A stretch of DNA of 64,000 nucleotides from positions 1,779 to 65,778 of the forward strand of contig JBAZNZ010000004.1 of assembly GCA_041648975.1 (NCBI GenBank), given 5' to 3'. This document shows positions 27,732 through 47,587 of the stretch, in pieces. Source of the DNA: Candidatus Omnitrophota bacterium (lineage in GTDB: Bacteria > Omnitrophota > Gorgyraeia > 2-01-FULL-45-10). A program made the position numbers and the translations under genes. Under the pieces are notes generated by a model. That model saw only the letters and a program-made list of their open reading frames with translations, ran no database searches and was not told where the DNA came from. Each line of letters opens with the position of its first letter. The first letter of the stretch is position 1.

Positions 27732-29249
27732 TTATACTTTCCCTTCCTCAATTTTAATATCCTCTATGTGAAGATTGGGATCCTCGATAACGCGGATAGT
27801 CTTCCTGAAACGCCTTTCCAGCGGCCTTATCATGTTCTTTTCCGGGGCCGCGATATTATACGCCACTTCCGGATGAAGGGAGACGAAGACCTCTCTCTTG
27901 CGGGAATCCTGCAAAAATCTCTCAAGTTTCCGCAACAGCTCTATCGACACCGTCGATATAGACTTGACAATCCCCCTGCCGCTGCAGTACGGGCACCTCT
28001 GATAGCTCTTCGACTCTATACTCTTCCTGACACGCTGCCTGGTCATTTCAATAAGGCCGATGCTGGAGATGTTTAGTATCTTAGTCTTTGCTTTATCGCC
28101 CTCAAGGTGCTTTTCCAGAGTTTTGTATATAGTCTTCCTGTGCTGGGGGATCTCCATGTCGATGAAATCTATAATTATTATCCCGCCGAGGTCGCGCAAC
28201 TTCAACTGCCTGGGCACCTCCTCCGCCGCTTCGATATTAGTTTTGAACGCCGTGTCCTCGAGGTTGCGCTTTCCCACAAATTTTCCCGAGTTGACGTCGA
28301 TGGCGACTAGCGATTCCGTTTGATCGAATATGAGGTATCCGCCGCTTTTCAGCTGCACGATCCTGTTGTATATCTTTTCTATCTGGCGCTCGATGTCGTG
28401 CTTCTCGAAAAGAGGTATCCTGTCCGTATGAAGCCTCAGCCTTGGCCTGAGATGCGGGGCAAGGATCTTCAGGAATCTCGATATCCTCTTAAATTCATCT
28501 CTTGAGTCTATATCCAGTTTCGACACATCATTGGTGAAGATGTCCCTGGCCACTCTCAGTATAATATCGTATTCCTGGTGTATAAGGCACGGTGGTTTGG
28601 CCTTTCTCGCCCTGGACTTTATATTGTGCCACAGGTTGGTGAGATACCTCATCTCCCTGAAAAAATCCTTCTGGCTGGCGCCCTGGGCCGCGGTCCTGAC
28701 TATCACGCCCATATCCTTTGCTATCTTCAATTCCTCAAGTATCTTCCTTATCCTGTCCCGCTCTTCTCTCGATTCGATCCTCCTCGAAAGGCCTATATGG
28801 TTATCGAACGGCATGAGGACAAGGAACCTCCCCGGTATGCTGACATGAGTGGTAAGCCTGGGCCCCTTCGTGCCTATCGGTTCTTTCACTACCTGGACAA
28901 GCACATCATCGCCCTTCTTAAGCAGCTCGCCTATGGAAGGAAGCGGCTTTTTCGGCTCGCCCCTTTCATGGCTTTCCTCTATAGGCCCGCCATCAAGCAG
29001 TTTCTCGTAACCCAGGGGATCCGACACGACGTCGGTCACATACAAAAATCCGTTCTTCTCCAGCCCGATGTTTACAAATGCGGCGCCCATTCCGGGCAAC
29101 ACAGATTCGACCTTGCCTTTGTAAATGTTGCCGAACAGGCTTTTCGCGCTGTCCGGCCTTTCAATATAAAACTCTTCTATCCTCTTATTCTCCATGACAG
29201 CGACGCGTTTTTCGTGCTGCGTCACATTAATATATATCTCTTTTTGCAT
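27732..29249 (-). CDS. rng: Ribonuclease G/E family endoribonuclease
   Basis: S1 domain N-terminus (GNIYKGKVESVLPGMGAAFVNIG) and RNase E/G catalytic core. Confidence 0.9.
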   Translation of the reverse strand: MQKEIYINVTQHEKRVAVMENKRIEEFYIERPDSAKSLFGNIYKGKVESVLPGMGAAFVNIGLEKNGFLYVTDVVSDPLGYEKLLDGGPIEESHERGEPKKPLPSIGELLKKGDDVLVQVVKEPIGTKGPRLTTHVSIPGRFLVLMPFDNHIGLSRRIESREERDRIRKILEELKIAKDMGVIVRTAAQGASQKDFFREMRYLTNLWHNIKSRARKAKPPCLIHQEYDIILRVARDIFTNDVSKLDIDSRDEFKRISRFLKILAPHLRPRLRLHTDRIPLFEKHDIERQIEKIYNRIVQLKSGGYLIFDQTESLVAIDVNSGKFVGKRNLEDTAFKTNIEAAEEVPRQLKLRDLGGIIIIDFIDMEIPQHRKTIYKTLEKHLEGDKAKTKILNISSIGLIEMTRQRVRKSIESKSYQRCPYCSGRGIVKSISTVSIELLRKLERFLQDSRKREVFVSLHPEVAYNIAAPEKNMIRPLERRFRKTIRVIEDPNLHIEDIKIEEGKV

Positions 29250-29542
29250 TACACCGTCTCCTCTGCCTTTATAATCCTTACCCCCTCAGGCAATTGTTCA
29301 TTGATTTTCCCGATAAATTCCTGCGGCGACAATCTCTTATCCATATGGAAAACAGCCTCCTGATCCATGCCCTCTACGCCGAGCTTGAGGGCTCTGGTTA
29401 TACTTATCTTAAGGTGGGGACTGAACCCTTTTGTCACGCTTACCGGAAGCGCCGCTCTCCGGGACGCCCTTTGGAAAAGCCTCATGAGATCCAGATGCGA
29501 AATAAAACGCGCGTTGCCGGTCTTGGAAAACGTTACTTTCAT
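29249..29542 (-). CDS. DUF2344 / TIGR03936-like radical-SAM-associated protein (short, 97 aa)
   Basis: RFISHLDLMRLFQRASRRAALPVSVTKGFSPHLKIS matches the DUF2344 core. Stop overlaps the rng start (ATGA). Confidence 0.65.
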   Translation of the reverse strand: MKVTFSKTGNARFISHLDLMRLFQRASRRAALPVSVTKGFSPHLKISITRALKLGVEGMDQEAVFHMDKRLSPQEFIGKINEQLPEGVRIIKAEETV

Positions 29543-29543
29543 A

Positions 29544-31220
29544 TTACCAGAATTTTTTATTCGGCCTCTTCTTGGCGGTCACGTCTTTCTGCTGAGTGAT
29601 CGTATACATAGGCACATAAGCCTTGTTCACATCCGGCAGGTCCTTGATTACACGCCCCTTATTCATAAGATTGACCGTGATAAAGAAAATAAGTTCCGTC
29701 TTCTGTTTTGTTATCTCTTTCTTAGTAACCAGGAGTCCCAAGTACGGCACATCGCCGAATATGTCTCCCAGGAACGGAAGCTTCTTTCGCGTATCGATAA
29801 TGTTCTCCTTTATCAATCCGCCGATAAATATCGTGTCCCCGTCTTTTACCATGACCTGCGTCTTGGCCTGCCGCACCGAGAAGACAGGCGCGACTACTCC
29901 GCTTGACTTATCAAGCGTATCGTATCTCAACAGGTCGCTTATCTGCGGCGTCAGGTCTATTACTATCTCATCCTTGTCGTTGACATGAGGGACAACCTTA
30001 AGCATTATGCCAAGATCTTTCGGTTCATACCCCGTTATCTCCATCTTTCCGGTAGTTGAACTCCTCTCGTATTTAGGCATATTAAGCGTATTTCCGACAT
30101 TAATGAAGGCTTCGTTGTTGTTAAGGGTAGTAATCCTGGGATTCGATATGAGGTCGGTGTTGGACCTTGATTTTATCATCTCCAGGACAGCCGAAAATTG
30201 GCTGAAATCAAGAGTGCCGAACGTGAACTGGTCTGTTCCGGCATAAGGAAATCCGAAACTCCCTGATTTTCCCCCATTAGCAGGGAACTCGCTGGCCGTT
30301 TCCGAAGCTACGCCTCCGCCCGAGGTAGTGGTCGTTGTCGACGGGCTGGAGCTCAAGACCTGCGGGAAAAATATCATACTATCCTGCGCCGAGTTAAACG
30401 GCATCTTGAAATAGTCAAAGGGAAATGTTGTCGGCCTCTTGGCGCCGCTGACGGAGAGCTTGACGTTCCAGTCAATGCCCAGTTTTTCGCTGTCATCCAG
30501 CGCGGTCTCTATTATCCTGGCCTCTATGAGGATCTGGTCGGTCTGTTTGTCGAGCCTCTCAACGACCTGGCCGATCTTGTATATGTTAGTGGGGATATCG
30601 GTAACGAGGACTGTGTTGGTCCTTTCGTCGTATGTGACCTTGCCCCTTTCGCTGACTATATCCTTTATCGATGTGGCGACATCCTTTGACTTGCTGTAAT
30701 TGAGATTGAAGGCCTGTGTTGTCAGCTCTTCCGCCTTGAGCTTATCGACAGTCACCACCCTTATTATATCCCCCTCCCTTTCGTAGGCAAACCCGTAGTT
30801 CCTTAAGATGATATCGAGCGCTGTCTTCCATGGCTTATTCGTCAATTTCAGGTCTATGGTGCCTTTTACATCGGGCGCAGGCACGATATCCACTCCGGAG
30901 ACTTCCGATATGTACGCCAGTACCGTCTTGATATCGGCGCCCTTAAAGTTGACCGTCACGTTGCCGGGTTCGACTCTGGCTGCCGGAACATCGGGTTCTT
31001 TCGGCTCTTCCGGTTGAACCGCGGCTGCTGGGACCACAACCGGCGTCATCATCTCATTCTCCTGGGGCCTATATGCCTGATCCTGGCCGATGGGGACCGC
31101 CTCCTCTACCGGCGGCTCTTTATAATTCTTTTCCTGCGCGACCGACACCAACGAGGAATCAAACAATAGACATAAAGAAATAGTCAAGAAGCCGACCAGA
31201 CAGATCTTTTTATTATTCAC
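29544..31220 (-). CDS. pilQ: Type IV pilus secretin PilQ
   Basis: Signal peptide, N-domains, C-terminal secretin domain (…LPFLGDIFGDVPYLGLLV…). Confidence 0.85.
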   Translation of the reverse strand: MNNKKICLVGFLTISLCLLFDSSLVSVAQEKNYKEPPVEEAVPIGQDQAYRPQENEMMTPVVVPAAAVQPEEPKEPDVPAARVEPGNVTVNFKGADIKTVLAYISEVSGVDIVPAPDVKGTIDLKLTNKPWKTALDIILRNYGFAYEREGDIIRVVTVDKLKAEELTTQAFNLNYSKSKDVATSIKDIVSERGKVTYDERTNTVLVTDIPTNIYKIGQVVERLDKQTDQILIEARIIETALDDSEKLGIDWNVKLSVSGAKRPTTFPFDYFKMPFNSAQDSMIFFPQVLSSSPSTTTTTSGGGVASETASEFPANGGKSGSFGFPYAGTDQFTFGTLDFSQFSAVLEMIKSRSNTDLISNPRITTLNNNEAFINVGNTLNMPKYERSSTTGKMEITGYEPKDLGIMLKVVPHVNDKDEIVIDLTPQISDLLRYDTLDKSSGVVAPVFSVRQAKTQVMVKDGDTIFIGGLIKENIIDTRKKLPFLGDIFGDVPYLGLLVTKKEITKQKTELIFFITVNLMNKGRVIKDLPDVNKAYVPMYTITQQKDVTAKKRPNKKFW

Positions 31221-31593
31221 TCTTTACCCCTCCTTCTTCGGATAACTTCACCGTATGTTCGTTACCGTCTAAATGTAATATTATAGAGTTCGGGCCGATC
31301 TTCTTTATCACAAGCTCCCCCGTTTTCTCACTTTCCCTGATTATCTCTCCGTTCAATATGGCCAGTCTCTTTCCGTCGGCTCCCATAGCTATTCCTTCGA
31401 GGTTGATCTCATATATCGACGTCACGTCTTTAAGTTTCGTAGTGACGCTCTTCTCCTGGCCTACAAGCGGCACAAGAGGGTCACGTCTCCCGTGCGCATC
31501 GTACCTTATGGCCTCCATGCCATGAAGATACGTGGCCGCCACAAGCGCCGCGAGGGCTAAACCGCTGATCTTACAGGCTCTGAAAAAAAACAT
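31213..31593 (-). CDS. pilP: PilP-like pilus assembly protein
   Basis: Small signal-anchored protein between pilO and pilQ. Confidence 0.55.
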   Translation of the reverse strand: MFFFRACKISGLALAALVAATYLHGMEAIRYDAHGRRDPLVPLVGQEKSVTTKLKDVTSIYEINLEGIAMGADGKRLAILNGEIIRESEKTGELVIKKIGPNSIILHLDGNEHTVKLSEEGGVKSE

Positions 31594-31616
31594 TTAAATA
31601 TCCACCTCACGGGCGG

Positions 31617-32195
31617 TTAGCCGCCCTTCTTCATTTTATAAGTCATGACCACCAGCTCGATATCATGTTTTTTCGGGTTGGAGCTGTTCGACTTCACGGC
31701 TATATCGACTATCTTCATGAATCTTTCGCCACCCTCAAGGCGGGCAAGAAAATTCCCGAGCTCATGGTATCCCGACTTTGCGCTTATGTGGATAGGTATC
31801 TCCTGAAAAGGGGTGTCTTTCCGCGCTTTATCCTCTTTTACGATATTCGGAGTTATGGCGGTGATCTTTACATTGGAGCTCTTTGCGACCGCATTAAGGT
31901 TCTCAAGCAGACCGGATATCGGCTGTTCGGCAGGCAGCATCTTCTCGTAGAGATCCATCTTTTCTTGTATGGCCGCCAGGTCGTTCTTAAGTTTGTCTAT
32001 CCTGGCTATGTCTTCTTTGGCCTTGGCCAATTCAAAACGAGCCTCATTCATTTTGACGAAACTGCCGAAGACCCCCACTAACTGCGGTACAAGCAGGAAA
32101 TTCAAATAAAATATGAATGCGATAACGGATACCAGGACGATCAATATCATCGTTTGTTTCTGGTTCTTATCGAATGTAAAAGGCAATTTTATCAT
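31617..32195 (-). CDS. pilO: Type IV pilus assembly protein PilO
   Basis: N-terminal TM helix then coiled coil. Position between pilN and pilP. Confidence 0.7.
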   Translation of the reverse strand: MIKLPFTFDKNQKQTMILIVLVSVIAFIFYLNFLLVPQLVGVFGSFVKMNEARFELAKAKEDIARIDKLKNDLAAIQEKMDLYEKMLPAEQPISGLLENLNAVAKSSNVKITAITPNIVKEDKARKDTPFQEIPIHISAKSGYHELGNFLARLEGGERFMKIVDIAVKSNSSNPKKHDIELVVMTYKMKKGG

Positions 32196-32215
32196 ATTTT
32201 CCGGCGATCCGGTTT

Positions 32216-32896
32216 CTATTCTTTGCTGTTAAAGAGGCAAGCTATCTTAAAATTCATTACCTCCTGGTCATCGAACTTGCTGCTTTTCATCGACACAAGT
32301 TCAATCTGCTGAAAATCTGAATAAAAAGAGGCGTTATCCTTAAGGCTGCTCATGAACTTGCCTATAAGCGCCGTTCCCTGCCCTCCTAGACTCGACGCGT
32401 AACCCGTCAATACAAGATATTTGAGCACAGAGCTTTCCGGCGGCTTTGTGGTATCTTTTTTTACCTTTGCGCCCGCCGGTGGAGGAGCTTTTTCCTTTTG
32501 CCTCTCCTCGTAACCGAAATCGGACAACCAGATACCCGATGTCATTGAATCGCTCAATTCGTTCAGCTTCGCTGCCCAGCTGAACCGCCCGTCCACAAGC
32601 TCATCAATAGCCCTCACCTTTTGATCTTTCAGCTGGATAAGCGTCTTTAAAGACTCCGCATATCTCTTTTCAGGCATCACCGACTCCAACTTCATCGATA
32701 GCGAGGCAAGCGTCGACTTACTGTATACGCCGCCAAAGAATAGCGCTATATGCATTACTGCCAACACGGCAACGAAACCTATAGCTATGTTCATAACAGG
32801 AATATTCTTTAAAAAATTAAGGTCGGCCAGGCCGATCTTCTTATACGCCGGTTCTCTTTTCCTGTATTCCTGCGGCAATAGATTAATCTGTACCAT
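32216..32896 (-). CDS. pilN: Type IV pilus assembly protein PilN
   Basis: MVQINLLP N-terminal signature and TM helix. Confidence 0.75.
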   Translation of the reverse strand: MVQINLLPQEYRKREPAYKKIGLADLNFLKNIPVMNIAIGFVAVLAVMHIALFFGGVYSKSTLASLSMKLESVMPEKRYAESLKTLIQLKDQKVRAIDELVDGRFSWAAKLNELSDSMTSGIWLSDFGYEERQKEKAPPPAGAKVKKDTTKPPESSVLKYLVLTGYASSLGGQGTALIGKFMSSLKDNASFYSDFQQIELVSMKSSKFDDQEVMNFKIACLFNSKE

Positions 32897-33017
32897 AAGC
32901 CCTGTGGTTGTCCTCGGCCGATAGGCCGTTGTCTTACTCGGGGCAATACTTAAGCGGCTATTGCATTACCGCTCTGCAGTTAACGCCTTGTTCTGGCCGC
33001 GAATGTATATCTTCCGC

Positions 33018-34049
33018 TCATCTCAACGCCAATCCTGCGGCGACGCCGTAAGAACCTTTCGATCCTTCCAGGAGTTTCGCGTCTATTCCGGAGGCGCTTT
33101 TATCTAAAAATGCGAGCGGATCCCAGGCGAAAGGCCGGACGCCGAAATATTCCTGAAACAGGTCTTCCAATCCGGCCAGGCCCGAACTGCCGCCCGAAAT
33201 ATAGATCTCGTCGACGCCCCTGCCGTTCTGGTTCTCGTAATAATTGAACGACAACTTCACTTCGTCGAGAAGATTATTGACTACGGGTTTCACCGCATCT
33301 ACTATCGACTGCCGTTTGTCGTGAGGTGATTCCTTGATCTTATCGGATGCCGCATTGTCCACGCCCAGGACCTTTGATATAGCGGCGCTGAACTCATTGC
33401 CGCCTATTGCCAGGTCCCTGATAAAATATGCCGTGCCTTCCCGCACTATGGCCAGATTGGTGAACCTGGCGCCAATATTCAGGATCGCAAAACTCTTATC
33501 CGCGGCGGCATCCGCCTTGTTCCTGGAAAATGAGCCCGCCAGAGCCAGGCTGTCCACATCTACTGCCGCCACCGACAGGCCTGAAGCCTCCGCTGCCTTT
33601 ATCCTGTCTTCGATCATATCTCTTTTAGCGGCTACCAGTATTAAATCTGTCTTGCTCCCGGCCTTGTCCGTACGCAGGACCTGAAAATCCACAACACACT
33701 CGCTTATATTAAAAGGTACGACCTTTTCCGCTTCGAACCTTACCGCGCTCTTCAGCTCATCGTCTTTCATCTTCGGCATCGTCACGAATCTCGCTACGAC
33801 AAACGGACCCGAGACGGAGATATTGGCTTCTTTAGCCGAAAATTTCGATTCCTCGACCAACCGCGTAACCGTTTCTGCCATCTCTATGCGGGAAGCGCCT
33901 CTTACCTTCTTCATCCCTAAGGATATCAATGACGGCGAAATGCCGCCGGATACCTCGACCGCCTTGACGAACGAGCTGCCGATATCAAGCCCTACGATCT
34001 TTTTCGCGCTGGGGCCGTGTCCGGTCTTTCCGAAAGGAGTTTCCGCCAT
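33018..34049 (-). CDS. pilM: Type IV pilus assembly ATPase-fold protein PilM
   Basis: Actin-like fold (IVGLDIGSSFVKAVEV ... DIGARFTNLAIV). Confidence 0.9.
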   Translation of the reverse strand: MAETPFGKTGHGPSAKKIVGLDIGSSFVKAVEVSGGISPSLISLGMKKVRGASRIEMAETVTRLVEESKFSAKEANISVSGPFVVARFVTMPKMKDDELKSAVRFEAEKVVPFNISECVVDFQVLRTDKAGSKTDLILVAAKRDMIEDRIKAAEASGLSVAAVDVDSLALAGSFSRNKADAAADKSFAILNIGARFTNLAIVREGTAYFIRDLAIGGNEFSAAISKVLGVDNAASDKIKESPHDKRQSIVDAVKPVVNNLLDEVKLSFNYYENQNGRGVDEIYISGGSSGLAGLEDLFQEYFGVRPFAWDPLAFLDKSASGIDAKLLEGSKGSYGVAAGLALR

Positions 34050-34549
34050 TATCGTGCCGCTTTATCGTTTGGGCGCTTCGCGCCGGGCTTATAATTAAAC
34101 TCTATCGATACGAGCTTCTTCAACGACTCGGACATCGCCAGCAAATTTTTAGACTTCTTATCATACGGATTCACTTTAAGCGCCTCTTTGCAGCTTTCGA
34201 TCTTATTATCCAATCCATCCATAAATTTTTTCTTGTCTTCAGGGCTTACGTTGGCCCAAGTTTTTACCATATTTACACCGACGTCATCTTCCGGATAATC
34301 CTGATATAAGGTTTGCAGGTCGGGAGGAATCCCTTTCTTTTCCAATGTCCGGTCCGTCCCTGTTCCGGCTTTGTGCCCATAAGCAGGAATGGCTGCGCCT
34401 GGAACCGTCTCTTCCGGCACTATGGCGCGCGCCGGGGCCTTCGTCTCTTTAGCGGAAGTGAAACGAAGCGTCCTGATAAAAAACACAGCCAATGCTATTA
34501 ATATTATAAAGAGCGCTGTATTTATATACACAAGATTCCTGTCTTTCAT
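34049..34549 (-). CDS. Hypothetical membrane-anchored protein inside the pilus locus
   Basis: Single N-terminal TM helix, no recognisable domain. Translationally coupled to the pilM start. Confidence 0.4.
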   Translation of the reverse strand: MKDRNLVYINTALFIILIALAVFFIRTLRFTSAKETKAPARAIVPEETVPGAAIPAYGHKAGTGTDRTLEKKGIPPDLQTLYQDYPEDDVGVNMVKTWANVSPEDKKKFMDGLDNKIESCKEALKVNPYDKKSKNLLAMSESLKKLVSIEFNYKPGAKRPNDKAAR

Positions 34550-34561
34550 ATTATAAGGTCC

Positions 34562-35929
34562 TCAGTTCTGCTGCCATATCGGCTCGAATTCCGTAGCCTC
34601 GTTCTTAATCCTGAACAAAAGAGATATCCTGTTATAACCCGGGGGCAGTCCCAGGGGCCAGTTCGCCGGATCGGACCAATCGACGTCGCCTCTGTTAATG
34701 TCCCTGTTCAGAAGCCCGGGTATGGGTAATACGGTGTCTATGTCCACATCCCCTTTGGCAAAGATAGCGCCGTCTGTCCTGCCTCCAAATAATGCGTTGA
34801 AATCGCCGTTAGCGTATATGACAATATTGCCTCTAACGCCTCCGAACGCCCTTATGCCGCCGGTATTGACATCGCCATACGACACTATGGTCAGCGTATC
34901 GTCCAAGCCGTTCGTCGGCTGAACTACAGTGACATCCCCCGTAGCTATGATGGTGTGGCTCGAGTCGCCTCCCCACCATGCTGTATCGCTAAAAAGTATA
35001 TCCACACTACCGTCAACAAATATTACAGGCGTACCCACGGGAACACTCCATGGATCGAATGTCTGGGAGCCTGTGTAATAATTTTCTTCGCCGGGCGTTA
35101 TCCCAAGGTCAACCCCCAAAGAGTTATTAGCGGCATCGTCCAGATATGTTGTATAATAATATGTAAAAGCGTCTTTATCATTTATCACGCCGTCGCTGTT
35201 GACATCGTCCGCGCTGAATATCGTTTCCTGCCCCTCTGGGATATCCGCGACGGTTACGCTGCCGTCGCTGTTTATATCCGTTATGAGACTGCCGTCGTTA
35301 TTGGTATCGTATGTATCCCCAAGCCAGAATGAGGGCGCGGAAAAACTCTGGTTCTCCAATGTCTCTCCCGATACCTGCACAAAATTATTTGTCGTAACCG
35401 TCGAACCGCTCGCCAGGGGCCCCTCTGCCCTTACCCATGACCTGAATCCCAGCAATTTCGCACCGGATAAGGACATCGGCCCTATACAGCCAAGCGGATA
35501 ACCGCTGTTAAACGGCGAATCGAAACCATACCTCACTATGACCCTTGACTTACGGCCGTTAACGGTCCCCTCTGACACTATCCCGAATATATCAGTAGTA
35601 ACTACATCGGCACTGGCGGTAAATGTCCCTACGGTCTGGCCTCCCGCGTTTCTCGTCTTCACAACGCTGTCTGCCGACGGCACGGCCAGAGGCCAGATAA
35701 CAGTCTGGCCTTCTTTCGATTTCATCAGGGCATACATTATCTCAGCGCCTGATCTCGCGGCGTAACGCGCGGACATAAGATCATTAGCGATCTTCGTCTG
35801 CAGTATCTCGCCGGACCCCATGCTGACGACAACTCCCGCTATCAGGACGAGCATTACAAGAAACGCGACGACTATAACTATGACAAAACCTTTATTATGT
35901 TTCATATGATACTCTCTGTCAGCTCGCAA
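34562..35929 (-). CDS. PilX-like N-terminal-domain protein with dockerin/EF-hand-like Asp-rich repeats (candidate pilus tip or adhesin component)
   Basis: KGFVIVIVVAFLVMLVLIAGVVVSMGSGEILQT PilX-like N-terminus. Repeats DTNNDGSLITDINSDGSVTV and DDVNSDGVINDKD. Confidence 0.5.
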   Translation of the reverse strand: MRADREYHMKHNKGFVIVIVVAFLVMLVLIAGVVVSMGSGEILQTKIANDLMSARYAARSGAEIMYALMKSKEGQTVIWPLAVPSADSVVKTRNAGGQTVGTFTASADVVTTDIFGIVSEGTVNGRKSRVIVRYGFDSPFNSGYPLGCIGPMSLSGAKLLGFRSWVRAEGPLASGSTVTTNNFVQVSGETLENQSFSAPSFWLGDTYDTNNDGSLITDINSDGSVTVADIPEGQETIFSADDVNSDGVINDKDAFTYYYTTYLDDAANNSLGVDLGITPGEENYYTGSQTFDPWSVPVGTPVIFVDGSVDILFSDTAWWGGDSSHTIIATGDVTVVQPTNGLDDTLTIVSYGDVNTGGIRAFGGVRGNIVIYANGDFNALFGGRTDGAIFAKGDVDIDTVLPIPGLLNRDINRGDVDWSDPANWPLGLPPGYNRISLLFRIKNEATEFEPIWQQN

Positions 35930-36524
35930 CGTTCTTTAATGACACTATATCGCTGTACTCGGCTTTGATATGCTGTCCGCCCGGCCTTGTGCCGGCGATA
36001 TCTTTCTCCACCGTTGCCGTGACTTTGATAAGATTACCGCACCCCAAATATTTCTCAAATTTCAGGTCCGACAATCCGATAGTGGCCATTATCTCATGGA
36101 CAGTTCCGTCATTATCCATATAATACAGCGCGTTCAGCCCGGATGCGGCATCAATGCCAAGATAAAAAGACCTTTCGTTCGAACCATCCGGCTCAAGAGC
36201 GTAATTTATCCTCTGGAGCGAAGGGATATCCGGCTCGGCTATCGCGTTAGCTATACCGTTCCTCCTTTTAAATGTAACCGCGCCCACACTGAATGTCCCA
36301 ACCGTATCATCCATACTGCCTTCCCGGATCGCCGAAAGGGCGATCCTCGCGATCCGCTGGGCTTCGATACGGGGCGACATCTCGTAAAACCAGGACCAGC
36401 TCATCACATATATCGACCATGCCGCCAGAAATATGAACATGGCGATAAAACTTGCCGTCAAAAGCTCTGTTAAAGTGAATGCGCGCCCGGTCCCGGCGTC
36501 AGGAAGACGTATGGTATGCGACAT
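35919..36524 (-). CDS. Prepilin-type minor pilin (PilW/GspJ-like), non-canonical leader
   Basis: GRAFTLTELLTASFIAMFIFLAAW, a class-III-signal-like N-terminus with Glu at +5-equivalent. Confidence 0.55.
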   Translation of the reverse strand: MSHTIRLPDAGTGRAFTLTELLTASFIAMFIFLAAWSIYVMSWSWFYEMSPRIEAQRIARIALSAIREGSMDDTVGTFSVGAVTFKRRNGIANAIAEPDIPSLQRINYALEPDGSNERSFYLGIDAASGLNALYYMDNDGTVHEIMATIGLSDLKFEKYLGCGNLIKVTATVEKDIAGTRPGGQHIKAEYSDIVSLKNVAS

Positions 36525-37352: not shown

Positions 37353-37382
37353 TATTATTATATATATTATTTCTTTTGATAT

Positions 37383-37411
37383 AATTTATCATAATAGTGG
37401 TAAGTTGTCAA
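37383..37411 (-). promoter_or_regulatory. Candidate promoter for the pilin paralog (TTGACA -35, weak -10 TAAATT)
   Basis: Minus strand reads cTTGACAacttaccactattatgaTAAATT, downstream of the pilA terminators. Confidence 0.35.
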
Positions 37412-37427
37412 GCTATAGTGCTTATAT

Positions 37428-37483: not shown

Positions 37484-37504
37484 TATCATAGATCATTGGT
37501 TAAC

Positions 37505-39340: not shown

Positions 39341-39341
39341 C

Positions 39342-41066
39342 TCAATCCTCCGAAGTGACTCTCAAGACCTCTTCGAACGTCGTGACACCGTTCACAAAAT
39401 TCTCTATGGCATTATCCCTCAGTGTCTTCATATGGAGCTCTTTTACGGCGTAATTTTTTATATCGTCACTGCCGCTCTTTTTCATTACCATATCGCGTAT
39501 AGAATCATCAAGAAGGAGGGCTTCGAGAATACCTATCCTTCCATAATATCCCGTATCGCTGCATTTAGGGCAGCCCCTGCCCTTAAAAAATACCTTTCTG
39601 TCTTTTTTAACCACTTCATCGATATTAAAGCCTGCCCTTTCAAATACGTTCTTCGGGATCTCGACTTCCATTTTACAATTAGGGCATATCTTCCTCATGA
39701 GGCGCTGCGCCGACGACAAGACAAGGCTCGACGCGACAAGGAAAGGCTCGACTCCCATATCTATCAGGCGGGTTATCGCGCCCGCTGAATCGTTAGTGTG
39801 CAGGGTGCTGAGGATCAGCTGCCCGGTAAGCGAGGCCTTGATAGCGATATCCGCGGTCTCAAAATCCCTTATCTCTCCCACCATCACTATGTCCGGGCTC
39901 TGCCTCAATACGGACTTAAGGCCGTTTGCGAAAGTCAACCCTATCTCGGACCTTGCCTGTATCTGAGTAATGCCTTCCACCTCATACTCGACCGGATCCT
40001 CAAGAGTAATTATATTGCGTTCCGGCGTGTTAAGCTGCGTTACTATCGAATAGAGCGTCGTCGATTTTCCGCTGCCTGTAGGGCCGGTAACAAGTATCAT
40101 ACCGTACGGCCTTTCAAGCGCGGTCTTAAAGGTGCCAAGCGGGCCCGGCAGGAATCCGAGCTTATCCAGCCCGATGCTTAGGCTCGATTTGTCGAGCGCC
40201 CTTAAAACTATCTTTCCGCCGAACGCCACGGGAAGAACCGACACCCTGAAGTCTATCTCGTTCCCCAGAAAGTTTATCCGGAAACGTCCGTCCTGCGGCA
40301 TCCTCGTCTCGGTGATGTCGAGCCTTGACAGGATCTTAAGGCGCGCCAGGACGGCGTTCTGGTTCTTCTTAGGCAGTGAAAATACATCGTGCAGGCTGCC
40401 GTCTATCCTGTATCGTATCCTCAGGTTCTTCTCGCACGGTTCGATATGTATATCGCTCGCGCGGCGTTTCAAGGCTTCATTCAATATCAGGCCCACCATC
40501 TTTACGATCGGCGCGCTTTTCGATTCTTCGGCTACCTCGCTTATATCGACCCTGTCTTCCTCTTCCACCTTCTCTATCTCTACGGCCTCCGAAGAGACCT
40601 CCTCCAGGAGCTTTGTTATCTCCTGCGCATGGCCCCCGTAATAGTTATGTATCCCCTGCATGATGTCGTTCTCTGTGGCTATCACAGGGTCTATCTGGAA
40701 ATGGGTAAGCATCTTTATATCGTCTATCGCGAGTATATTAAGCGGGTCCGACATAGCTATCGTAAGGACGCCGCCGATCTTCGATACGGGTATTATCGAA
40801 TACTGCCTGGCCATCTTCTCCGGGATCAGCGGGATAAGCGACTTATCTATCTTATATTTCGTCAGGTCTATAGGAGGCATGTTAAGCTGGCGGCTCATCA
40901 CCACCATGAGGTCCTTTTCCGATACGAAACCGTTCCCGATCAATATCTTTCCAAGACTTCCTCCGGATTTTTTCTGTATCTCGAGGGCGCGGTCAAGATC
41001 CTTCTGCTTTACCATCTTACCGTTAACCAGAAGGTCTATGAGCTTATATCTGAATGATTCTATCAT
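39342..41066 (-). CDS. pilB: Type IV pilus assembly ATPase PilB (GspE family), copy 1
   Basis: Two N-terminal GSPII_E_N domains, Walker A GPTGSGKSTT, Asp box, His box, tetracysteine CPNC...CPKC. Confidence 0.9.
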   Translation of the reverse strand: MIESFRYKLIDLLVNGKMVKQKDLDRALEIQKKSGGSLGKILIGNGFVSEKDLMVVMSRQLNMPPIDLTKYKIDKSLIPLIPEKMARQYSIIPVSKIGGVLTIAMSDPLNILAIDDIKMLTHFQIDPVIATENDIMQGIHNYYGGHAQEITKLLEEVSSEAVEIEKVEEEDRVDISEVAEESKSAPIVKMVGLILNEALKRRASDIHIEPCEKNLRIRYRIDGSLHDVFSLPKKNQNAVLARLKILSRLDITETRMPQDGRFRINFLGNEIDFRVSVLPVAFGGKIVLRALDKSSLSIGLDKLGFLPGPLGTFKTALERPYGMILVTGPTGSGKSTTLYSIVTQLNTPERNIITLEDPVEYEVEGITQIQARSEIGLTFANGLKSVLRQSPDIVMVGEIRDFETADIAIKASLTGQLILSTLHTNDSAGAITRLIDMGVEPFLVASSLVLSSAQRLMRKICPNCKMEVEIPKNVFERAGFNIDEVVKKDRKVFFKGRGCPKCSDTGYYGRIGILEALLLDDSIRDMVMKKSGSDDIKNYAVKELHMKTLRDNAIENFVNGVTTFEEVLRVTSED

Positions 41067-42790
41067 ACCGTATCCAGGTCCTGTTCCCCGACTGTTACCC
41101 GAAGCACCTCGTCCAGGGTTGTCACGCCGTCGAGCGCGTTCTGCATCCCGTTCTCCCTGAGAGTCTTCATGCCTTCACGCCTGGCCTCTTCCCGTATCTT
41201 ATATTCCTGGGCTTCTTCCAGTATAAGGACCTTTATTCTTGAAGTTACCGGCAAAACTTCAAGTAACGCCGTCCTTCCCTTATAACCCGTGCCCAGGCAT
41301 TTATTGCACCCTTTGCCGCGATAGAACTTAACGCCCTTCTTATCAGTATCTATCTTAAGCTTTTCGGCCATATCTTTGCCGAGTTCGAAAGGCTCTTTGC
41401 AGCTCAGGCATATCTTGCGGACAAGCCTCTGCGCGCCTACCATTATTAAGGATGAGGTTATTAAGAACGGTTCGACGCCCATGTTAATAAGGCGGACTAT
41501 GGAACCGGTAGCCGTCGTCGTATGCAGTGTGCTTAAGACCAGGTGGCCCGTCAAGGCCGACTTGATCGCTATATCGACAGTCTCGAAGTCCCTTATCTCC
41601 CCTATCATTATAACATTCGGGTCCTGGCGCAATATCGAGCGTAAGACACTCGCGAAAGTAAGCCCGATATCGGGTTTTGCGGCGACCTGATTTATGCCTT
41701 CGATTATATACTCCACAGGATCTTCGACAGTGACGATATTCTTTTCGGGAGAATTCACATGCTGCATTACCGAATAAAGGGTGGTGGTCTTGCCGCATCC
41801 GGTCGGCCCGCATATCAGGATCATACCGTGCGGCTTTGAATCGGCTTTCTTTATCTCCTCCAGGGACCGGGTGTCAAATCCCAGCTTCTCTATATCAAGG
41901 GTAGCCTGGGACTTGTCCAGGATCCTCAACGCGACTTTTTCCCCGCGGCTGGACGGAAGAACCGAGACCCTGAAGTCCACTTCCCTGCCGCTCAACTTTA
42001 CCTTAAACCTTCCGTCTTGAGGCAGTCGTCTTTCCGCTATGTCCAGGTCCGACATTACCTTTATCCTGGATATTATGGCGTTCTGGAATGCCTTCGGCGA
42101 CCGCTTGCCTTCGCGCCATATGCCGTCAACGCGGTATCTTATACGGACCTCGGTGTCGAGAGGCTCGATAAGTATATCGCTGGAACGCATTGAAACGCCT
42201 TCCGCGAGAAGCATATTGGTGATCTTGACCACAGGCGCATCCTGGGTCATCCTCAATATGTCTGTGGAACTCTGCGATTCTTCGCCGGAGAGATTATCAA
42301 TAAGCTTCAGGTCATCGATATCGCCCACTATCTTCTCTATCGCCGCATAAGCATCCTCGTCATAATAATGGCCGAGCGCCTCCCTGATATCCTTTTCATA
42401 CGCGATGACCGGGCTTATTTTATATCCCGTGAGCGTCTTTATATCGTCTATCGCGAATATATTAAGAGGATCAGCCATGGCTATCATCAAGGTGTCTCCG
42501 ATCTTCGATATCGGCAGGATCATGTAATTTCTCGCTGTCTTTCTCGGCACCAATTTTATGACAGCGGGATCTATCTTATAGCGTGAGAGGTTTATAGGAG
42601 GTATGCCGAGCCCCTGGCTAAGTGTAACCATCAGGTCGCTTTTCGATACAAGGCCCAGGCTGATAAGTATATCGCTTAAAGACCCGCCCTTTTCCTTCTG
42701 GAATGAAATGGCCTTTTCGAGATCGGCAGGTTTAATGAGCTTCTTATCGACCAGTAATTTCGCAAGTTTCTCTTTTAATTCTGTAGCCAT
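41063..42790 (-). CDS. pilB: GspE-family pilus/secretion ATPase, tandem paralog of pilB (copy 2)
   Basis: Same architecture as copy 1 (GPTGCGKTTT, CLSC...CNKC). The two proteins are clearly divergent paralogs. Confidence 0.85.
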   Translation of the reverse strand: MATELKEKLAKLLVDKKLIKPADLEKAISFQKEKGGSLSDILISLGLVSKSDLMVTLSQGLGIPPINLSRYKIDPAVIKLVPRKTARNYMILPISKIGDTLMIAMADPLNIFAIDDIKTLTGYKISPVIAYEKDIREALGHYYDEDAYAAIEKIVGDIDDLKLIDNLSGEESQSSTDILRMTQDAPVVKITNMLLAEGVSMRSSDILIEPLDTEVRIRYRVDGIWREGKRSPKAFQNAIISRIKVMSDLDIAERRLPQDGRFKVKLSGREVDFRVSVLPSSRGEKVALRILDKSQATLDIEKLGFDTRSLEEIKKADSKPHGMILICGPTGCGKTTTLYSVMQHVNSPEKNIVTVEDPVEYIIEGINQVAAKPDIGLTFASVLRSILRQDPNVIMIGEIRDFETVDIAIKSALTGHLVLSTLHTTTATGSIVRLINMGVEPFLITSSLIMVGAQRLVRKICLSCKEPFELGKDMAEKLKIDTDKKGVKFYRGKGCNKCLGTGYKGRTALLEVLPVTSRIKVLILEEAQEYKIREEARREGMKTLRENGMQNALDGVTTLDEVLRVTVGEQDLDTV

Positions 42791-42825
42791 ATTTATCCGG
42801 TCCTATGATCGCGCAAAACCGCGTC

Positions 42826-43275
42826 TCAATGGCGGTTATAGTTCTTGCTTATCGCGTTAGTCACGTCGGTCATCGTGCTCACGAAGACCTGGACCTTGCA
42901 CTTCGTAAGCATCTCTATATCCTCAACTGCCTGGAAATTCAGCGGATTCGACATCGCTATCGTAAGGAGGTCGCCTATTTTATCTATAGCTATAAGGTTA
43001 TATTGTTTAGCGACGTGCTCGGGTATCATCTTGACGGCTTCGCTATTCACCTCATAAAATTCCAGAGGAAGATAGGGGAAACCGTATTGGACGGTCAGGG
43101 CCTGCGCTATCTCCTCTTCCTTGGCGAAACCCATCGCGACCATTATCTGGCCTATCAGGCCGCCCTTCTCCTCCTGAACCTTCAAGGCCTTAGCCAATTG
43201 CGACTCGTTTATCACGCCTCTTTCCAGTAGAAGTTCACCCAATTGTTTCGAGACAATACGTCTTATTGGAGACAT
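42826..43275 (-). CDS. Stand-alone GSPII_E N-terminal (MshEN-like) domain protein
   Basis: Two tandem N-domain repeats and nothing else. First repeat QLGELLLERGVINESQLAKALKVQ fits the MshEN c-di-GMP-binding motif except R to Q at position 1. Confidence 0.6.
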   Translation of the reverse strand: MSPIRRIVSKQLGELLLERGVINESQLAKALKVQEEKGGLIGQIMVAMGFAKEEEIAQALTVQYGFPYLPLEFYEVNSEAVKMIPEHVAKQYNLIAIDKIGDLLTIAMSNPLNFQAVEDIEMLTKCKVQVFVSTMTDVTNAISKNYNRH

Positions 43276-43296: not shown

Positions 43297-44361
43297 CTAC
43301 TTTTTAAATATCCTCTTAAGATCATCGACATCAGTGGATCTCTCAAGTGCCTCTTCGTAAGATATAAGCTTCTTCTGGTATAGTTCATAAAGGGCCTGGT
43401 TCATTGTCCTCATGCCCTCTTTCTGCGAGGTCTGCATGACGGAATATATCTGATGGATCTTAGACTCCCTGATCATGCTGCGTACAGCGGCCGTGATCAA
43501 TAAAATCTCTACAGCCAGGACGCGGCCGTGGCCTCCGACCTTCGGCAGCAACTGCTGGGCCATAACGCCTATAAGGACAAATGAAAGCTGCGTCCTTATC
43601 TGGGCCTGCTGATAAGCGGGAAAGACGTCTATGAGCCTGTTTATCGTCTGGACGCAATCCGATGTATGGAGCGTGGCAAAAACGAGGTGGCCTGTCTCTG
43701 CGATTATAAGCGCGGATTCTATCGTCTCGAGATCCCTTAATTCCCCTATTAATATTACATCGGGATCCTGGCGCAGGACATGTTTAAGGGCCCCGGTAAA
43801 TGAATAGGTGTCGCTTCCAAGCTCGCGCTGGTTGACAATGGCCTTTTTATTCCTGTGAAGATACTCTATAGGGTCTTCGACTGTTACAATGTGACACGGC
43901 CTTGCGGCGTTTATCGAATCTATCATCGATGCCAGGCTCGTCGATTTTCCGCTTCCGGTAGCGCCTGTGACAAGCACGAGCCCTTTCGGACGGTTACATA
44001 AGTCCTTCACGACATCGATAGGCAGGCCGCATTCTTCTAACGGCCATATGTCGTGCGGTATCACCCTTATCGAGCACGCGATAGAGTCCCTCTGCTTGAA
44101 GACATTCACCCTGAACCGGCCCAGGCCGGATACTCCGAAAGCCAGATCAAGCTCCAATTCGCGCTCGAACTTCTCTTTCTGCGCGTCGTTCAGCAACTTA
44201 TAGGTCAGCTCTTTCGATTCCACCGGGGTGAGGATACCTCCTTCAACCGGGATGAGTTTTTCGTCTACGCGTATAACGACCGGCGCTCCCGCGGTAATAT
44301 GGATATCCGAAGCGCCTTTCTCTACCATCATCTTCAATAGCTTATTCATGTCGTGAGGCAT
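43297..44361 (-). CDS. pilT: Twitching motility ATPase PilT
   Basis: PilT length (354 aa), Walker A GATGSGKST and PilT-type N-terminus. Confidence 0.9.
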   Translation of the reverse strand: MPHDMNKLLKMMVEKGASDIHITAGAPVVIRVDEKLIPVEGGILTPVESKELTYKLLNDAQKEKFERELELDLAFGVSGLGRFRVNVFKQRDSIACSIRVIPHDIWPLEECGLPIDVVKDLCNRPKGLVLVTGATGSGKSTSLASMIDSINAARPCHIVTVEDPIEYLHRNKKAIVNQRELGSDTYSFTGALKHVLRQDPDVILIGELRDLETIESALIIAETGHLVFATLHTSDCVQTINRLIDVFPAYQQAQIRTQLSFVLIGVMAQQLLPKVGGHGRVLAVEILLITAAVRSMIRESKIHQIYSVMQTSQKEGMRTMNQALYELYQKKLISYEEALERSTDVDDLKRIFKK

Positions 44362-44392: not shown

Positions 44393-45808
44393 TTAAGCGA
44401 AGACCCTGTTCTTCCCGGCCGTCTTCGCCTCTTTGAGTAAATTCATGGCCTTTTTATATAATTCGTCTCCGGTCGCCCCGTCGATCGGGTTTTCGCTGAC
44501 ACCGCATGAAACGGTAAGCGCGGCCTTACCTACTCTTACGAGATTCGCGGCTTCTATCCTTTTCCTAAGGTCTTCGGCGATATCGGTCGCCTCTTTCTTG
44601 TTCTTCTCCGGCATGAGGACAGCGAATTCATCCACGCCGACCCTCGCCGCCTTGCCTACCGGCGGGATATTGTCCTTTATCAGCTTGGCCATCTTATTCA
44701 GAGCCTCTTCTGCGGCCAGCTCACCGTGCGTCTCCCTGAAGTTCTTGAAATTGTCGATATTAAATACGATGAACGCGCAAGGCCTCTGATAGAATATCGA
44801 GCGCTTTATCTCTTCCTCGAGCCGTGTGACGATAAAATTCTTATTATAAAGGTCTGTCAAATCGTCTTTTATCGAAAGCTCTTCGGTCTTCCTGTTCAAT
44901 ATGTCGCTCTCGATAGCTATCGTTATCTGTTTTGCGAATACCTTGATCATCTCTATATCGTCGTTCTTGAATTTGAAATCATCGGCCCTGCTGCCGACGA
45001 TAAAAAGCCCCAGGTTATTTCGTCCGGAAAACAAAGGGACGGCTATGATATTCTTTAATCCGTATCCGGCCTTCAACTCTTCCACCTCTTTCGACGGCTT
45101 CATCCCTTTATCCAGGACAAAAATAGCGCGTTCCTGCACGGCCCTTTCCAGGACACTGCGGCCGGTCTTCCTGATCACCAGGTTATCGAGGCTCTCCTTA
45201 TCGAGGTTGTAAGAGGTCTTTACCGAAAAATCCCCATTCCCCGCCTTGGGCATGTACAGCGCGCCGAAACCTGTATCGAATACCAGCGAGGACTTTTCCG
45301 TTATCATCTCCAGCAGCGGGTCGAGCTGTATGGAGCCTGCCGAGATCATGTCCCCGACCTGCAGGAGGCTCGACAATGCCAGGACCTTTTTGTTTATGTC
45401 TACATTTATCTCCCGCATCCTCTGTCCGTAATTCTTCAGTTCATCCAGGTTCGATCTTATCTTCTGGGTCATGGTGTTTATCGAATATGCCAGGTTGCCT
45501 ATTTCGTCTTCGCTCGACACAGACAGTTTCCTGTCATATTCGCCGTTGGCCATTATCTTGGCCTCGATAGCCATATCAATTACGGGATCCACCAGCCCCT
45601 TAGCCAGGGCAAGGCCCAGAATAGCTATTATTATCGAAGAGACCAGCACGACACTTATGGTAGATATTCCGTCGAGATTCGGAAAAACATAAGTCGAGAT
45701 AATATACATCGAAGCGAGGAGAGGTATGATAGACATCAGGCTGAAGGCGAGAAGAAGTTTGTATCTCAAACCCTTGTGGACTATGGTTAAACGCTTGAAG
45801 ATATTCAT
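44393..45808 (-). CDS. Membrane HAMP-GAF-GGDEF domain protein with degenerate GVDEF motif
   Basis: TM helix, HAMP, GAF-like region. GGDEF fold where the RYGGEEF position reads RVGVDEF and no RxxD I-site is present. Confidence 0.75.
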   Translation of the reverse strand: MNIFKRLTIVHKGLRYKLLLAFSLMSIIPLLASMYIISTYVFPNLDGISTISVVLVSSIIIAILGLALAKGLVDPVIDMAIEAKIMANGEYDRKLSVSSEDEIGNLAYSINTMTQKIRSNLDELKNYGQRMREINVDINKKVLALSSLLQVGDMISAGSIQLDPLLEMITEKSSLVFDTGFGALYMPKAGNGDFSVKTSYNLDKESLDNLVIRKTGRSVLERAVQERAIFVLDKGMKPSKEVEELKAGYGLKNIIAVPLFSGRNNLGLFIVGSRADDFKFKNDDIEMIKVFAKQITIAIESDILNRKTEELSIKDDLTDLYNKNFIVTRLEEEIKRSIFYQRPCAFIVFNIDNFKNFRETHGELAAEEALNKMAKLIKDNIPPVGKAARVGVDEFAVLMPEKNKKEATDIAEDLRKRIEAANLVRVGKAALTVSCGVSENPIDGATGDELYKKAMNLLKEAKTAGKNRVFA

Positions 45809-45898
45809 AATATCCTCCTAAATGAGATTATATCCCTAATATATTAATTTTATGGAAAGTATACTATATATATGGCAGTTTGTCAAACAGGGGGCGCT

Positions 45899-47587
45899 TC
45901 AAGATGTTATGATGATAAAATCCCAGGGCAATATTTCATCGGAAAGCCGGGCCCTGCCGGCATAGAACGAGTGGTCGACGCCTGCCTTCTCGAACGCCGC
46001 CATCCAGAGATCGAAATTGAACCTGTCTTTCCATCCGTCAAAACGCGCGCCGGACTTCCAGGCCTCATACACAACAGCGGCAAGAGCCCTGTCCCCTCTC
46101 GAAAAGACAGCTTCAAGATAACTCATCTTGACGGAATGAAAATCCATTTCGACCATCTTTGACCTCATCGACTTCCGCAATAAGTCGATCTTTTTATTCA
46201 GGATAGCGGCGCTGTCCATGGGCTCTCTCTGAAAAGGCGTGTGCGGCTTCGGGACGAAGGCATTTATGCTGGCGGTGATGTGGGCGGACTTTCCGTCAAC
46301 CTCCCTCTTAAGGTCGGAGATCTTGTATATCATCTCAGATATCGAGAGCAGGTCTTTCTCGGTTTCGCCCGGCAGTCCTATCATAAAATATAGTTTTACG
46401 TGCCGCCACCCGGCCTTATAAGATTCCAGCGCGGCGTGAAACAGTTTTTCTATGTCGATACCTTTATTAAGCGACTTCCTCAATTCGGGAGTTCCGGCCT
46501 CCGGCGCGAACGTAAGGCCCGCCTTCTTAACATTCGATATCAGGAGCGGCAGGTTTTTAAGCGCATCCTCTATCCTGAGCGACGGCACGGATATGGACAC
46601 GGACCGAGGGCCGAACTCTTCGTTAAGGCGCGCCATGATCTCCGGCAGGCGGGAATGGTCGACGCTGGAAAGAGAGAGAAGAGATATCTCGTCGTAGCCC
46701 GTCCGGGCGTAAGATTCCCGGGCAAGCTCCAGGATCTTCCCTACCGACCTTTCGCGGCAGGGCCTGTACGTAACCGTAGCCTGGCAGAATTTACACCCGT
46801 GTTTGCATCCGCGCATTATTTCAATTATCAGCCTGTCGTGGATTATCTGGATATTCGGGACTATCTGCTTGACCGGATAATACGCGTCATCTAGATTTCC
46901 GACAAATCGTTTTATTATCTTTGCCGGAGCGTCTTTCTCGATAATGGAAAATTTCTTCGGCGTTCCGTCTTCATTATATTCTGTATTATAAAATGACGGA
47001 ACATAAATACCTTTTATTTTGGAAAGGCGCGTCAATAATTCTTTTCTCGACTCTCCGGCCTTGTACGCATCCACGATCTCCGAGATGACCTCTTCCCCGT
47101 CGCCGATAACGAATGCGTCGATAAATTCCGCTATCGGCTCGGGGTTGTAACAGGAAGGGCCGCCCGCTATGATCAGCGGATCCTCATCCGTCCGTTCCGG
47201 CGCCCTCAGCGGGATCCGCCCAAGGTCCAGCATGTTCAGCACATTGGTATATCCGAGTTCATAGGTAACGCTGAACCCTATTATGTCAAAATCTTTAATG
47301 GGCCTTCTCGTCTCAAGACTAAAGAGGTCGAGATTATTTTTTCTTAAAACATCTTCGAAATCGCCCCATGGAGAAAAAACTCTTTCGCAAAGGCAGTCAT
47401 CCCGGTCATTCAGTATCCCGTATAATATCTTTGTCCCGAGATAACTCATCCCCACTTCATAGAGGTCGGGAAACGCGAGGAGCACCTTAACCTTATCGTC
47501 CGTCCACTCCTTCCGGACAGAGTTCCACTCCCCTCCGCAATACCTCCCGGGCTTCTGCACCGTCAGCAATAATTCTTCAAGATTCAT
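45899..47587 (-). CDS. Radical SAM protein, TIGR03960-like (B12-binding-like N-domain + radical SAM core)
   Basis: CKHGCKFC (CxxxCxxC) motif and family-typical N-terminus LLTVQKPGRYCGGEWNSV. Confidence 0.8.
   Translation of the reverse strand: MNLEELLLTVQKPGRYCGGEWNSVRKEWTDDKVKVLLAFPDLYEVGMSYLGTKILYGILNDRDDCLCERVFSPWGDFEDVLRKNNLDLFSLETRRPIKDFDIIGFSVTYELGYTNVLNMLDLGRIPLRAPERTDEDPLIIAGGPSCYNPEPIAEFIDAFVIGDGEEVISEIVDAYKAGESRKELLTRLSKIKGIYVPSFYNTEYNEDGTPKKFSIIEKDAPAKIIKRFVGNLDDAYYPVKQIVPNIQIIHDRLIIEIMRGCKHGCKFCQATVTYRPCRERSVGKILELARESYARTGYDEISLLSLSSVDHSRLPEIMARLNEEFGPRSVSISVPSLRIEDALKNLPLLISNVKKAGLTFAPEAGTPELRKSLNKGIDIEKLFHAALESYKAGWRHVKLYFMIGLPGETEKDLLSISEMIYKISDLKREVDGKSAHITASINAFVPKPHTPFQREPMDSAAILNKKIDLLRKSMRSKMVEMDFHSVKMSYLEAVFSRGDRALAAVVYEAWKSGARFDGWKDRFNFDLWMAAFEKAGVDHSFYAGRARLSDEILPWDFIIITS

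Follow-up and report, generated by a model that had tools for sequence, protein, structure and literature searches.

A type IV pilus gene cluster separates a radical SAM gene from a half-size DUF2344 gene across sampled Omnitrophota

Introduction

Two described systems come closest to the locus analysed here: the gene pair encoding TIGR03960 radical S-adenosylmethionine (SAM) and TIGR03936/DUF2344 proteins, and type IVa pilus clusters. The locus lies in a 64,000-nucleotide stretch of DNA, hereinafter the window, from a Candidatus Omnitrophota bacterium (assembly GCA_041648975.1, contig JBAZNZ010000004.1), in which a type IV pilus gene cluster separates the radical SAM gene from the DUF2344 gene. 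In Bacillota, Chloroflexota and other phyla, the two genes are adjacent or fused, the DUF2344 protein has 205–251 amino acids (aa), and the radical SAM protein carries a C-terminal tail of ~50 aa. The Omnitrophota pair belongs to the same hidden Markov model (HMM) families above cut-offs, has the same CxxxCxxC motif and is flanked on both sides by the same backbone genes, but its members lie 16.4 kb apart in the window, its DUF2344 protein has ~100 aa, and its radical SAM protein has no tail. We report that this separation is common to the Omnitrophota sampled. Full-text searches of the literature on TIGR03960, TIGR03936, DUF2344 and Omnitrophota pili yielded no description of the arrangement.

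The intervening DNA resembles type IVa pilus clusters, with PilT, PilM, PilO, PilC, a secretin, PilB-like ATPases and prepilins in canonical order, and it resembles systems with cyclic di-GMP (c-di-GMP)-binding MshE-type ATPases, with a GGDEF enzyme next to a stand-alone protein and two PilBs that all carry the MshEN motif. Unlike in usual type IVa clusters, all modules form one contiguous block on the same strand, embedded in a backbone of cell-shape and ribosome-biogenesis genes; two PilBs stand in tandem next to a separate MshEN protein, and no prepilin peptidase gene was identified within the block. Compared with such clusters, the PilN and PilP positions are without HMM support, and PilB and PilQ score just under the NCBIfam equivalog cut-offs. 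None of the component families is new, and as a pilus locus the cluster is ordinary, being neither a new mobile element nor a new pilus type.

Separation of the radical SAM and DUF2344 genes in the window

Coordinates are positions in the window, and L-numbers denote individual loci compared from relatives, outgroups or metagenomes. The radical SAM gene (45899–47587, minus strand) encodes a B12-binding-type protein of 562 aa, which matches TIGR03960 with 716.2 bits against a cut-off of 462.3, over model positions 1–563 of 605, and also matches Pfam Radical_SAM_N2 (PF19864) and Radical_SAM (PF04055). The cysteines of its CxxxCxxC motif (C261, C265 and C268) are invariant among 25 aligned radical SAM sequences. 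The gene is neither adjacent nor fused to the TIGR03936/DUF2344 gene, which is a feature of context and not of sequence. Instead, 16.4 kb of type IV pilus genes intervene before the DUF2344 gene (29249–29542, minus strand), and rng, encoding an RNase G/E-family ribonuclease, follows directly (27732–29249, minus strand; TIGR00757 (Rne/Rng), 515 bits).

The DUF2344 protein has 97 aa. It scores 123.1 bits against a cut-off of 71.9 for TIGR03936 and 116.5 bits against 23.8 for PF10105, but covers only positions 4–96 of 209 and 3–96 of 176, respectively. It is the N-terminal half of DUF2344, and full-length coverage of the family model is not reached.

Upstream of the radical SAM gene lies the backbone mreB-mreC-mreD-mrdA (PBP2)-rodA (49339–54536, minus strand; NCBIfam and Pfam matches, synteny maps). 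Downstream of rng, a 623-aa open reading frame (ORF) precedes rplU, rpmA, obg and proB (together 22916–27652, minus strand).

The original prediction, made from the sequence of the window, had placed the whole pilus locus between the two genes and ahead of rng, and had named TIGR03960 and TIGR03936/DUF2344 as the families concerned. The ORF map and HMM scans agree with its coordinates and gene order, and the profile-HMM check puts both proteins above the curated cut-offs.

The interrupted arrangement across Omnitrophota

A scan of species-representative genomes with a radical SAM alignment returned 80 loci, and a scan of metagenomes with an alignment of the short DUF2344 protein returned 80 further loci. 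Among the genome loci, the 11 of Omnitrophota type that include downstream sequence all show the gene order rodA-radical SAM-GGDEF-(pilT)-MshEN-pilB-pilB-pilC (a twelfth locus is too short), and in none of these 11 does a DUF2344 gene lie within 10 kb of the radical SAM gene. One of the 11 bears the label Planctomycetales. Look-ups around radical SAM homologues found mreBCD-mrdA-rodA-radical SAM-GGDEF-pilT-MshEN-pilB-pilB-pilC, and those around short DUF2344 homologues found pilB-pilC-pilins-pilMNOPQ-DUF2344 (100–102 aa)-rng in three metagenome-assembled genomes (MAGs). At the upstream end, mre/mrdA/rodA genes precede the radical SAM gene in all Omnitrophota loci with enough upstream sequence, and a GGDEF gene directly follows it in all Omnitrophota loci. 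At the downstream end, pilQ lies directly upstream of the short DUF2344 gene in 55 of 57 informative metagenome loci, many of the junctions being shorter than 30 bp, and rng lies directly downstream in 67 of 68. The order rplU-rpmA-obg-proB further downstream is the same in relatives and outgroups.

The full arrangement is present on a single contig in four divergent lineages, whose radical SAM proteins are 47–66% identical to that of the window. Specifically, the whole arrangement is spanned by the overlapping loci L006 and L003 on one contig (radical SAM 66% identical), by the overlapping loci L027 and L125 on a 710-kb contig (64%), by L171 on one contig (52%), and by L170 on one contig. The last belongs to a deep clade, in which the radical SAM protein of its counterpart L031 is 47% identical to that of the window. 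In the deep clade, blastn and pilC identity failed to join the loci on the radical SAM side to those on the DUF2344 side; exact-sequence look-ups joined them. Because every Omnitrophota-type locus recovered is interrupted, including lineages with radical SAM proteins 45–52% identical to that of the window, the interruption is dated near the root of the sampled Omnitrophota.

Outgroups and the direction of change

The outgroup set comprises 61 informative non-Omnitrophota loci, from Bacillota (including Negativicutes and Desulfotomaculia), Chloroflexota, a 'Deltaproteobacteria' MAG and a Brocadiaceae MAG. DUF2344 lies directly downstream of the radical SAM gene in 50 of them and is fused to it in one more (896 aa), giving 51 of 61 with a contiguous or fused pair, in line with the original prediction. 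Measured from the conserved N-terminus, the outgroup DUF2344 has 205–251 aa. The next gene is rng in 31 of 49 loci, and rplU-rpmA-obg-proB commonly come after it, while rodA/mre genes lie upstream in many; no pilus genes are found near the pair in the outgroups. Since the same backbone flanks the pilus block in the window, the simplest history is that the pilus cluster was inserted into an existing backbone.

In a neighbour-joining tree of the radical SAM core, one bipartition, recovered in 99 of 100 bootstraps, has all 15 interrupted loci on the same side, and each of the three deep branches of this clade includes a locus with the complete arrangement. Both observations fit one old event.

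The pair has been split independently in a Brocadiaceae MAG (L017, 1994–8599). There, 6.6 kb separate the radical SAM gene from a full-length DUF2344 gene (205 aa) and are occupied by genes for HPPK, LptF/G, a CN hydrolase, a ComF-like phosphoribosyltransferase, a ribosome hibernation factor, a phosphotransferase system (PTS) EIIA protein and an HPr-EI fusion. DUF2344 is full-length here in spite of the separation; truncation is thus not a necessary outcome of separation alone, and an unlinked pair can function.

The two truncated proteins

The 97-aa DUF2344 protein is 100% identical to a protein of a Candidatus Omnitrophota MAG. Over 100 of the homologues closest to it have 86–117 aa, most of them ~100, and the named ones are all from Omnitrophota/Omnitrophica. 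An alignment of 40 short DUF2344 sequences contains 22 invariant columns, including S15-H16-L17-D18, R21, R25, R28 and R29. The uniform length and strong conservation of the homologues indicate that the short DUF2344 is functional and common to the whole lineage; with the conserved form present in hundreds of Omnitrophota sequences, the view of it as a local remnant left in this genome has to be given up. Truncation by a frameshift is ruled out by the clean TAATG overlap with rng and by the more than 100 homologues of equal length. Across 1.84 billion cluster representatives, most members of the DUF2344 family have 200–250 aa and a few are fused (~850 aa), while forms of ~100–135 aa are a minority, concentrated among the best matches.

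An HMM of the C-terminal half of DUF2344, built from 56 outgroup proteins, found nothing better than E ~1 in the six frames of the window, in the radical SAM C-terminus or in rng, and nothing better in ~100 Omnitrophota loci. The radical SAM protein is shortened as well. Specifically, 2–27 residues extend beyond its conserved core in Omnitrophota, compared with 41–76 (median 52) in all 67 outgroup proteins, so that the missing ~50-aa C-terminal tail is a lineage-specific loss. The coinciding losses suggest that the C-terminal half of DUF2344 and the C-terminal tail of the radical SAM protein are likely to interact in other lineages.

At the level of fold, the short DUF2344 is a single TruA-like alpha/beta domain. 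Its sequence identity to TruA/Pus1-family pseudouridine synthases is only 11–19%, which limits the likeness to the fold, and the catalytic unit of those enzymes has two domains whereas the short DUF2344 has one. The resemblance to TruA therefore holds for a single domain at fold level only, and pseudouridine synthase activity is not claimed. The TruA-like fold, the placement of the family in the Pfam pseudouridine-synthase clan and the context of rng, rplU, rpmA and obg suggest that the radical SAM protein and DUF2344 probably act on an RNA substrate. The radical SAM protein and the short DUF2344 may still cooperate in trans.

Origin of the arrangement

The locus is best explained, with a probability of about 0.8, by an ancient synteny change common to the sampled Omnitrophota, in which DUF2344 also lost its C-terminal half and the radical SAM protein its tail. 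The ancestral backbone would have been mreBCD-mrdA-rodA-radical SAM-DUF2344 (~220–250 aa)-rng-rplU-rpmA-obg-proB, an order that Bacillota and other phyla retain. A type IVa pilus cluster linked to c-di-GMP (GGDEF, pilT, MshEN, two copies of pilB, pilC, pilins and pilMNOPQ) would have become fixed between the radical SAM and DUF2344 genes in the common ancestor of the Omnitrophota sampled here, and vertical inheritance would have maintained the interrupted arrangement ever since. Along this lineage, DUF2344 would have lost its C-terminal half, leaving the conserved single TruA-like domain of ~100 aa, and the radical SAM protein would have lost its tail of ~50 aa. We infer that a single event lies behind the interruption.

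Several points weigh against this explanation. The RND efflux operon upstream of the short DUF2344 gene in L100, the lipopolysaccharide and sugar-metabolism genes in the same place in L147, and the pilins-pilMNOPQ genes that alone adjoin short DUF2344-rng in L167/L168 (which are the same sequence) mean that the block is not inviolable and that it may have been assembled stepwise. In L168 (1–10000), LptC/LptD-like, transaldolase, ROK and two GGDEF genes lie upstream of the pilins. Eight outgroup loci have no DUF2344 within the flank, so that the pairing is common and not universal. The tree is a simple distance tree of a single protein, and sampling is limited to ~15 loci anchored on radical SAM and ~85 anchored on DUF2344, from part of the Omnitrophota classes.

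The original prediction had proposed that the pilus module was inserted as a block into a conserved gene pair, at a recombination-prone junction. The direction of change in this proposal stands, given the contiguous or fused pair of the outgroups. A recent insertion, in which the module would be mobile or horizontally acquired in this genome or a close ancestor, is highly improbable. An interruption here of a pair contiguous in other phyla, with a foreign AT-rich ORF and inverted repeats one gene away, would suit such an event, but the relatives share the interruption as an ancestral arrangement, even where the radical SAM protein is only 47–66% identical, and this is the outcome that the original prediction had named as refuting its proposal. 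The composition of the block is native and indistinguishable from that of its flanks: the block has a GC content of 0.491 (flanks, 0.504) and a GC content at third codon positions (GC3) of 0.593 (flanks, 0.625; remainder of the window, 0.612), and relative synonymous codon usage (RSCU) in block and flanks is correlated with r=0.925. The comparison of GC content and codon usage thus yields no foreign signal and rules out a block that is foreign by composition. The block shows no integrase, transposase or tRNA boundary, and the AT-rich insert is found in another spacer and in none of the relatives examined. Stepwise assembly, in which the pilB/pilC and pilin-pilMNOPQ modules arrived separately, and reverse polarity, in which the other phyla deleted pilus genes, are together quite unlikely. 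A pair that is contiguous or fused and whose DUF2344 is full-length is found in Bacillota, Chloroflexota, a Brocadiaceae MAG and a 'Deltaproteobacteria' MAG, while the interruption is confined to one radical SAM clade. The partial cluster of L167/L168, with unrelated genes upstream, and the independent split of the Brocadiaceae pair by unrelated housekeeping genes can be read in favour of such histories; with the complete block in all three deep branches, however, a secondary split in L168 is simpler.

Alternatively, the radical SAM protein and the half-size DUF2344 may have gained a role tied to the pilus or to c-di-GMP control, for example by modifying a pilus component or mRNA or by coupling pilus expression to rng-dependent RNA processing, and the truncations would then reflect a new function. 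We consider this unlikely. In its favour, the linkage has been kept over very deep divergence, with tight pilQ-DUF2344 junctions, and both partners changed their architecture only in the Omnitrophota lineage. In the outgroups, however, the pair occupies the same backbone with rng, rplU, rpmA and obg and has no pilus genes nearby, short DUF2344-rng is retained at loci that the pilus genes have left (L100, L147 and, in part, L168), the TruA-like fold points to RNA and not to pilus proteins, and long-lived synteny is possible without a shared function. It is similarly doubtful that the tail-less radical SAM protein and the half-size DUF2344 have been re-engineered into a system for RNA modification, with a DUF2344 homodimer perhaps re-creating a TruA-like two-domain cleft, whose expression is wired to the c-di-GMP-controlled pilus operon. 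If true, such a functional split would couple pilus production to rng-dependent and ribosome-maturation functions in ultra-small, possibly host-dependent cells.

Under the preferred explanation of an ancient synteny change, the arrangement is a rare genomic change across the sampled Omnitrophota, apparently undescribed, and a natural experiment on a widespread, uncharacterised radical SAM/DUF2344 pair, in which physical separation is tolerated. The TruA-like single domain is a fold-level clue to a pair acting on RNA. The arrangement may also serve as a modest synteny marker, for example for a MAG labelled Planctomycetales that carries it. Locus L060 (CAYHAI010000116.1), labelled 'uncultured Planctomycetales', has the Omnitrophota-type order rodA-radical SAM-GGDEF-MshEN-pilB, and its radical SAM protein groups within the deep clade of Omnitrophota; this MAG is probably taxonomically mislabelled.

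The pilus block and its transcription signals

All genes of the block lie on the minus strand. The conserved block opens with the gene for a HAMP-GAF-GGDEF diguanylate cyclase (44393–45808), which is followed by genes for the PilT retraction ATPase (43297–44361; TIGR01420, 476 bits against a cut-off of 319), a stand-alone MshEN-domain protein of 149 aa with a c-di-GMP-binding motif (42826–43275; PF05157 and NF053729), two PilB-type assembly ATPases in tandem (41063–42790 and 39342–41066; T2SSE and MshEN domains) and the PilC platform protein (38126–39340). The best match of the two PilBs is TIGR02538, with 631 and 641 bits, slightly below the cut-off of 676. PilC is supported by PF00482, and its top NCBIfam matches are type IV pilus PilC models, under their cut-offs. 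Assembly ATPase, retraction ATPase and platform protein are all present.

The pilin and minor-pilin region (34049–37968) comes next, with three to four prepilin-type genes followed in the block order by three unassigned ORFs. The prepilin N_methyl motif is found in three ORFs (37600–37968, 36996–37352 and 36499–36999) and weakly in a fourth (35919–36524); the ORFs at 34562–35929 and 34049–34549 are without assignment. The block ends with PilM, the PilN-position ORF, PilO, the PilP-position ORF and the PilQ secretin (29544–34049). Of the pilMNOPQ labels in the original prediction, those of PilM (TIGR01175, 184 bits against 133), PilO (PF04350 passes) and the secretin (its domains pass; TIGR02515, 241 bits against a cut-off of 284) hold, while those of PilN (18 bits against a cut-off of 22.8) and PilP (no real match) come from gene position and not from HMM matches.

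The MshE-type c-di-GMP motif model NF053729 matches the MshEN-only protein and both PilBs with 57.0, 44.5 and 51.1 bits against a cut-off of 38, and in each PilB the motif is N-terminal. Because these motifs score above the cut-off beside a GGDEF enzyme, the sequences fit a pilus that is regulated by c-di-GMP. The trio of MshEN genes (39342–43275), just downstream of the GGDEF gene, is kept in all Omnitrophota loci examined.

A consensus scan identified a near-consensus sigma-70-like site, TTGACA-17-TATACT (45858–45886, minus strand), in the 90-bp spacer between the radical SAM and GGDEF genes, which is a candidate transcript start of the pilus block. The same scan placed promoter-like and terminator-like sites around the first pilin gene and no minus-strand terminator-like site between pilQ and DUF2344-rng. 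Most other junctions in the block measure −26 to +35 bp. At the downstream end, pilQ ends 1 bp ahead of DUF2344, whose stop codon overlaps the start of rng (TAATG). The 1-bp spacer, the overlap of stop and start codons and the lack of a terminator-like site suggest that DUF2344-rng is co-transcribed with pilMNOPQ.

The content of the block varies among relatives. Deep-clade loci (L170, L020, L026, L031, L045 and L077) are without pilT in the block and have a response-regulator/HD-GYP gene between the second pilB and pilC. L170 also has a weak HepT-like/NTase_sub_bind gene and a '23S rRNA intervening sequence protein' gene inside the pilus cluster; the features noted in this locus lie at 6412–7482, 11335–11730 and 15713–16075. 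In L007 (18270–20784), the closest of the relatives recovered as judged by radical SAM (70% identity), pilC is split by an insertion sequence (IS)-type transposase gene on the opposite strand (DUF4372, DDE_Tnp_1).

The AT-rich cassette and other neighbouring genes

The spacer between rodA and the radical SAM gene is 1.75 kb long in the window, compared with 2–40 bp in five relatives and 138–1263 bp in others, and holds a genome-specific AT-rich cassette (47641–49342). Its 264-aa ORF (48153–48947, minus strand) has a GC content of 0.311, a GC3 of 0.242 and an RSCU correlation of r=−0.25, and is the only compositionally foreign ORF. Two nested inverted repeats surround it, the inner at 47883–47928 and 49062–49107 (46 nt, 93% complementarity) and the outer at 47693–47737 and 49226–49270 (45 nt, 87% complementarity). 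Four copies of the motif GACTTTTTCTnnnnAArGGGC lie around the ORF; the motif recurs neither elsewhere in the window nor in any of 171 loci. A dispersed repeat is ruled out, the repeat being restricted here to the rodA-radical SAM spacer.

The 264-aa ORF has no match in Pfam, NCBIfam, PADLOC or PHROGs, which leaves a DUF3800, defence-system or phage identity unsupported. Its earlier assignment to DUF3800 fails even at E<=5, the only hit being a chance-level match to DUF1737 (E=0.15). The element looks like a small foreign cassette. It is a separate, recent, genome-specific insertion outside the ancient arrangement and is uninformative on the origin of the pilus block; the suggestion that it marks a recombination-prone spot shared with the pilus locus is not supported.

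Upstream of short DUF2344-rng in L147 (4288–7125), a UDP-glucose/GDP-mannose dehydrogenase gene carries an intein that has a LAGLIDADG-like region. In the window, the 623-aa ORF between rng and rplU (25781–27652, minus strand) has only weak similarity to DUF1570/Peptidase_MA. A homologue is absent from L003 and L005 and occupies the same place in L092, L100 and L125 and, in part, L094; this ORF is a clade-specific addition to the backbone.

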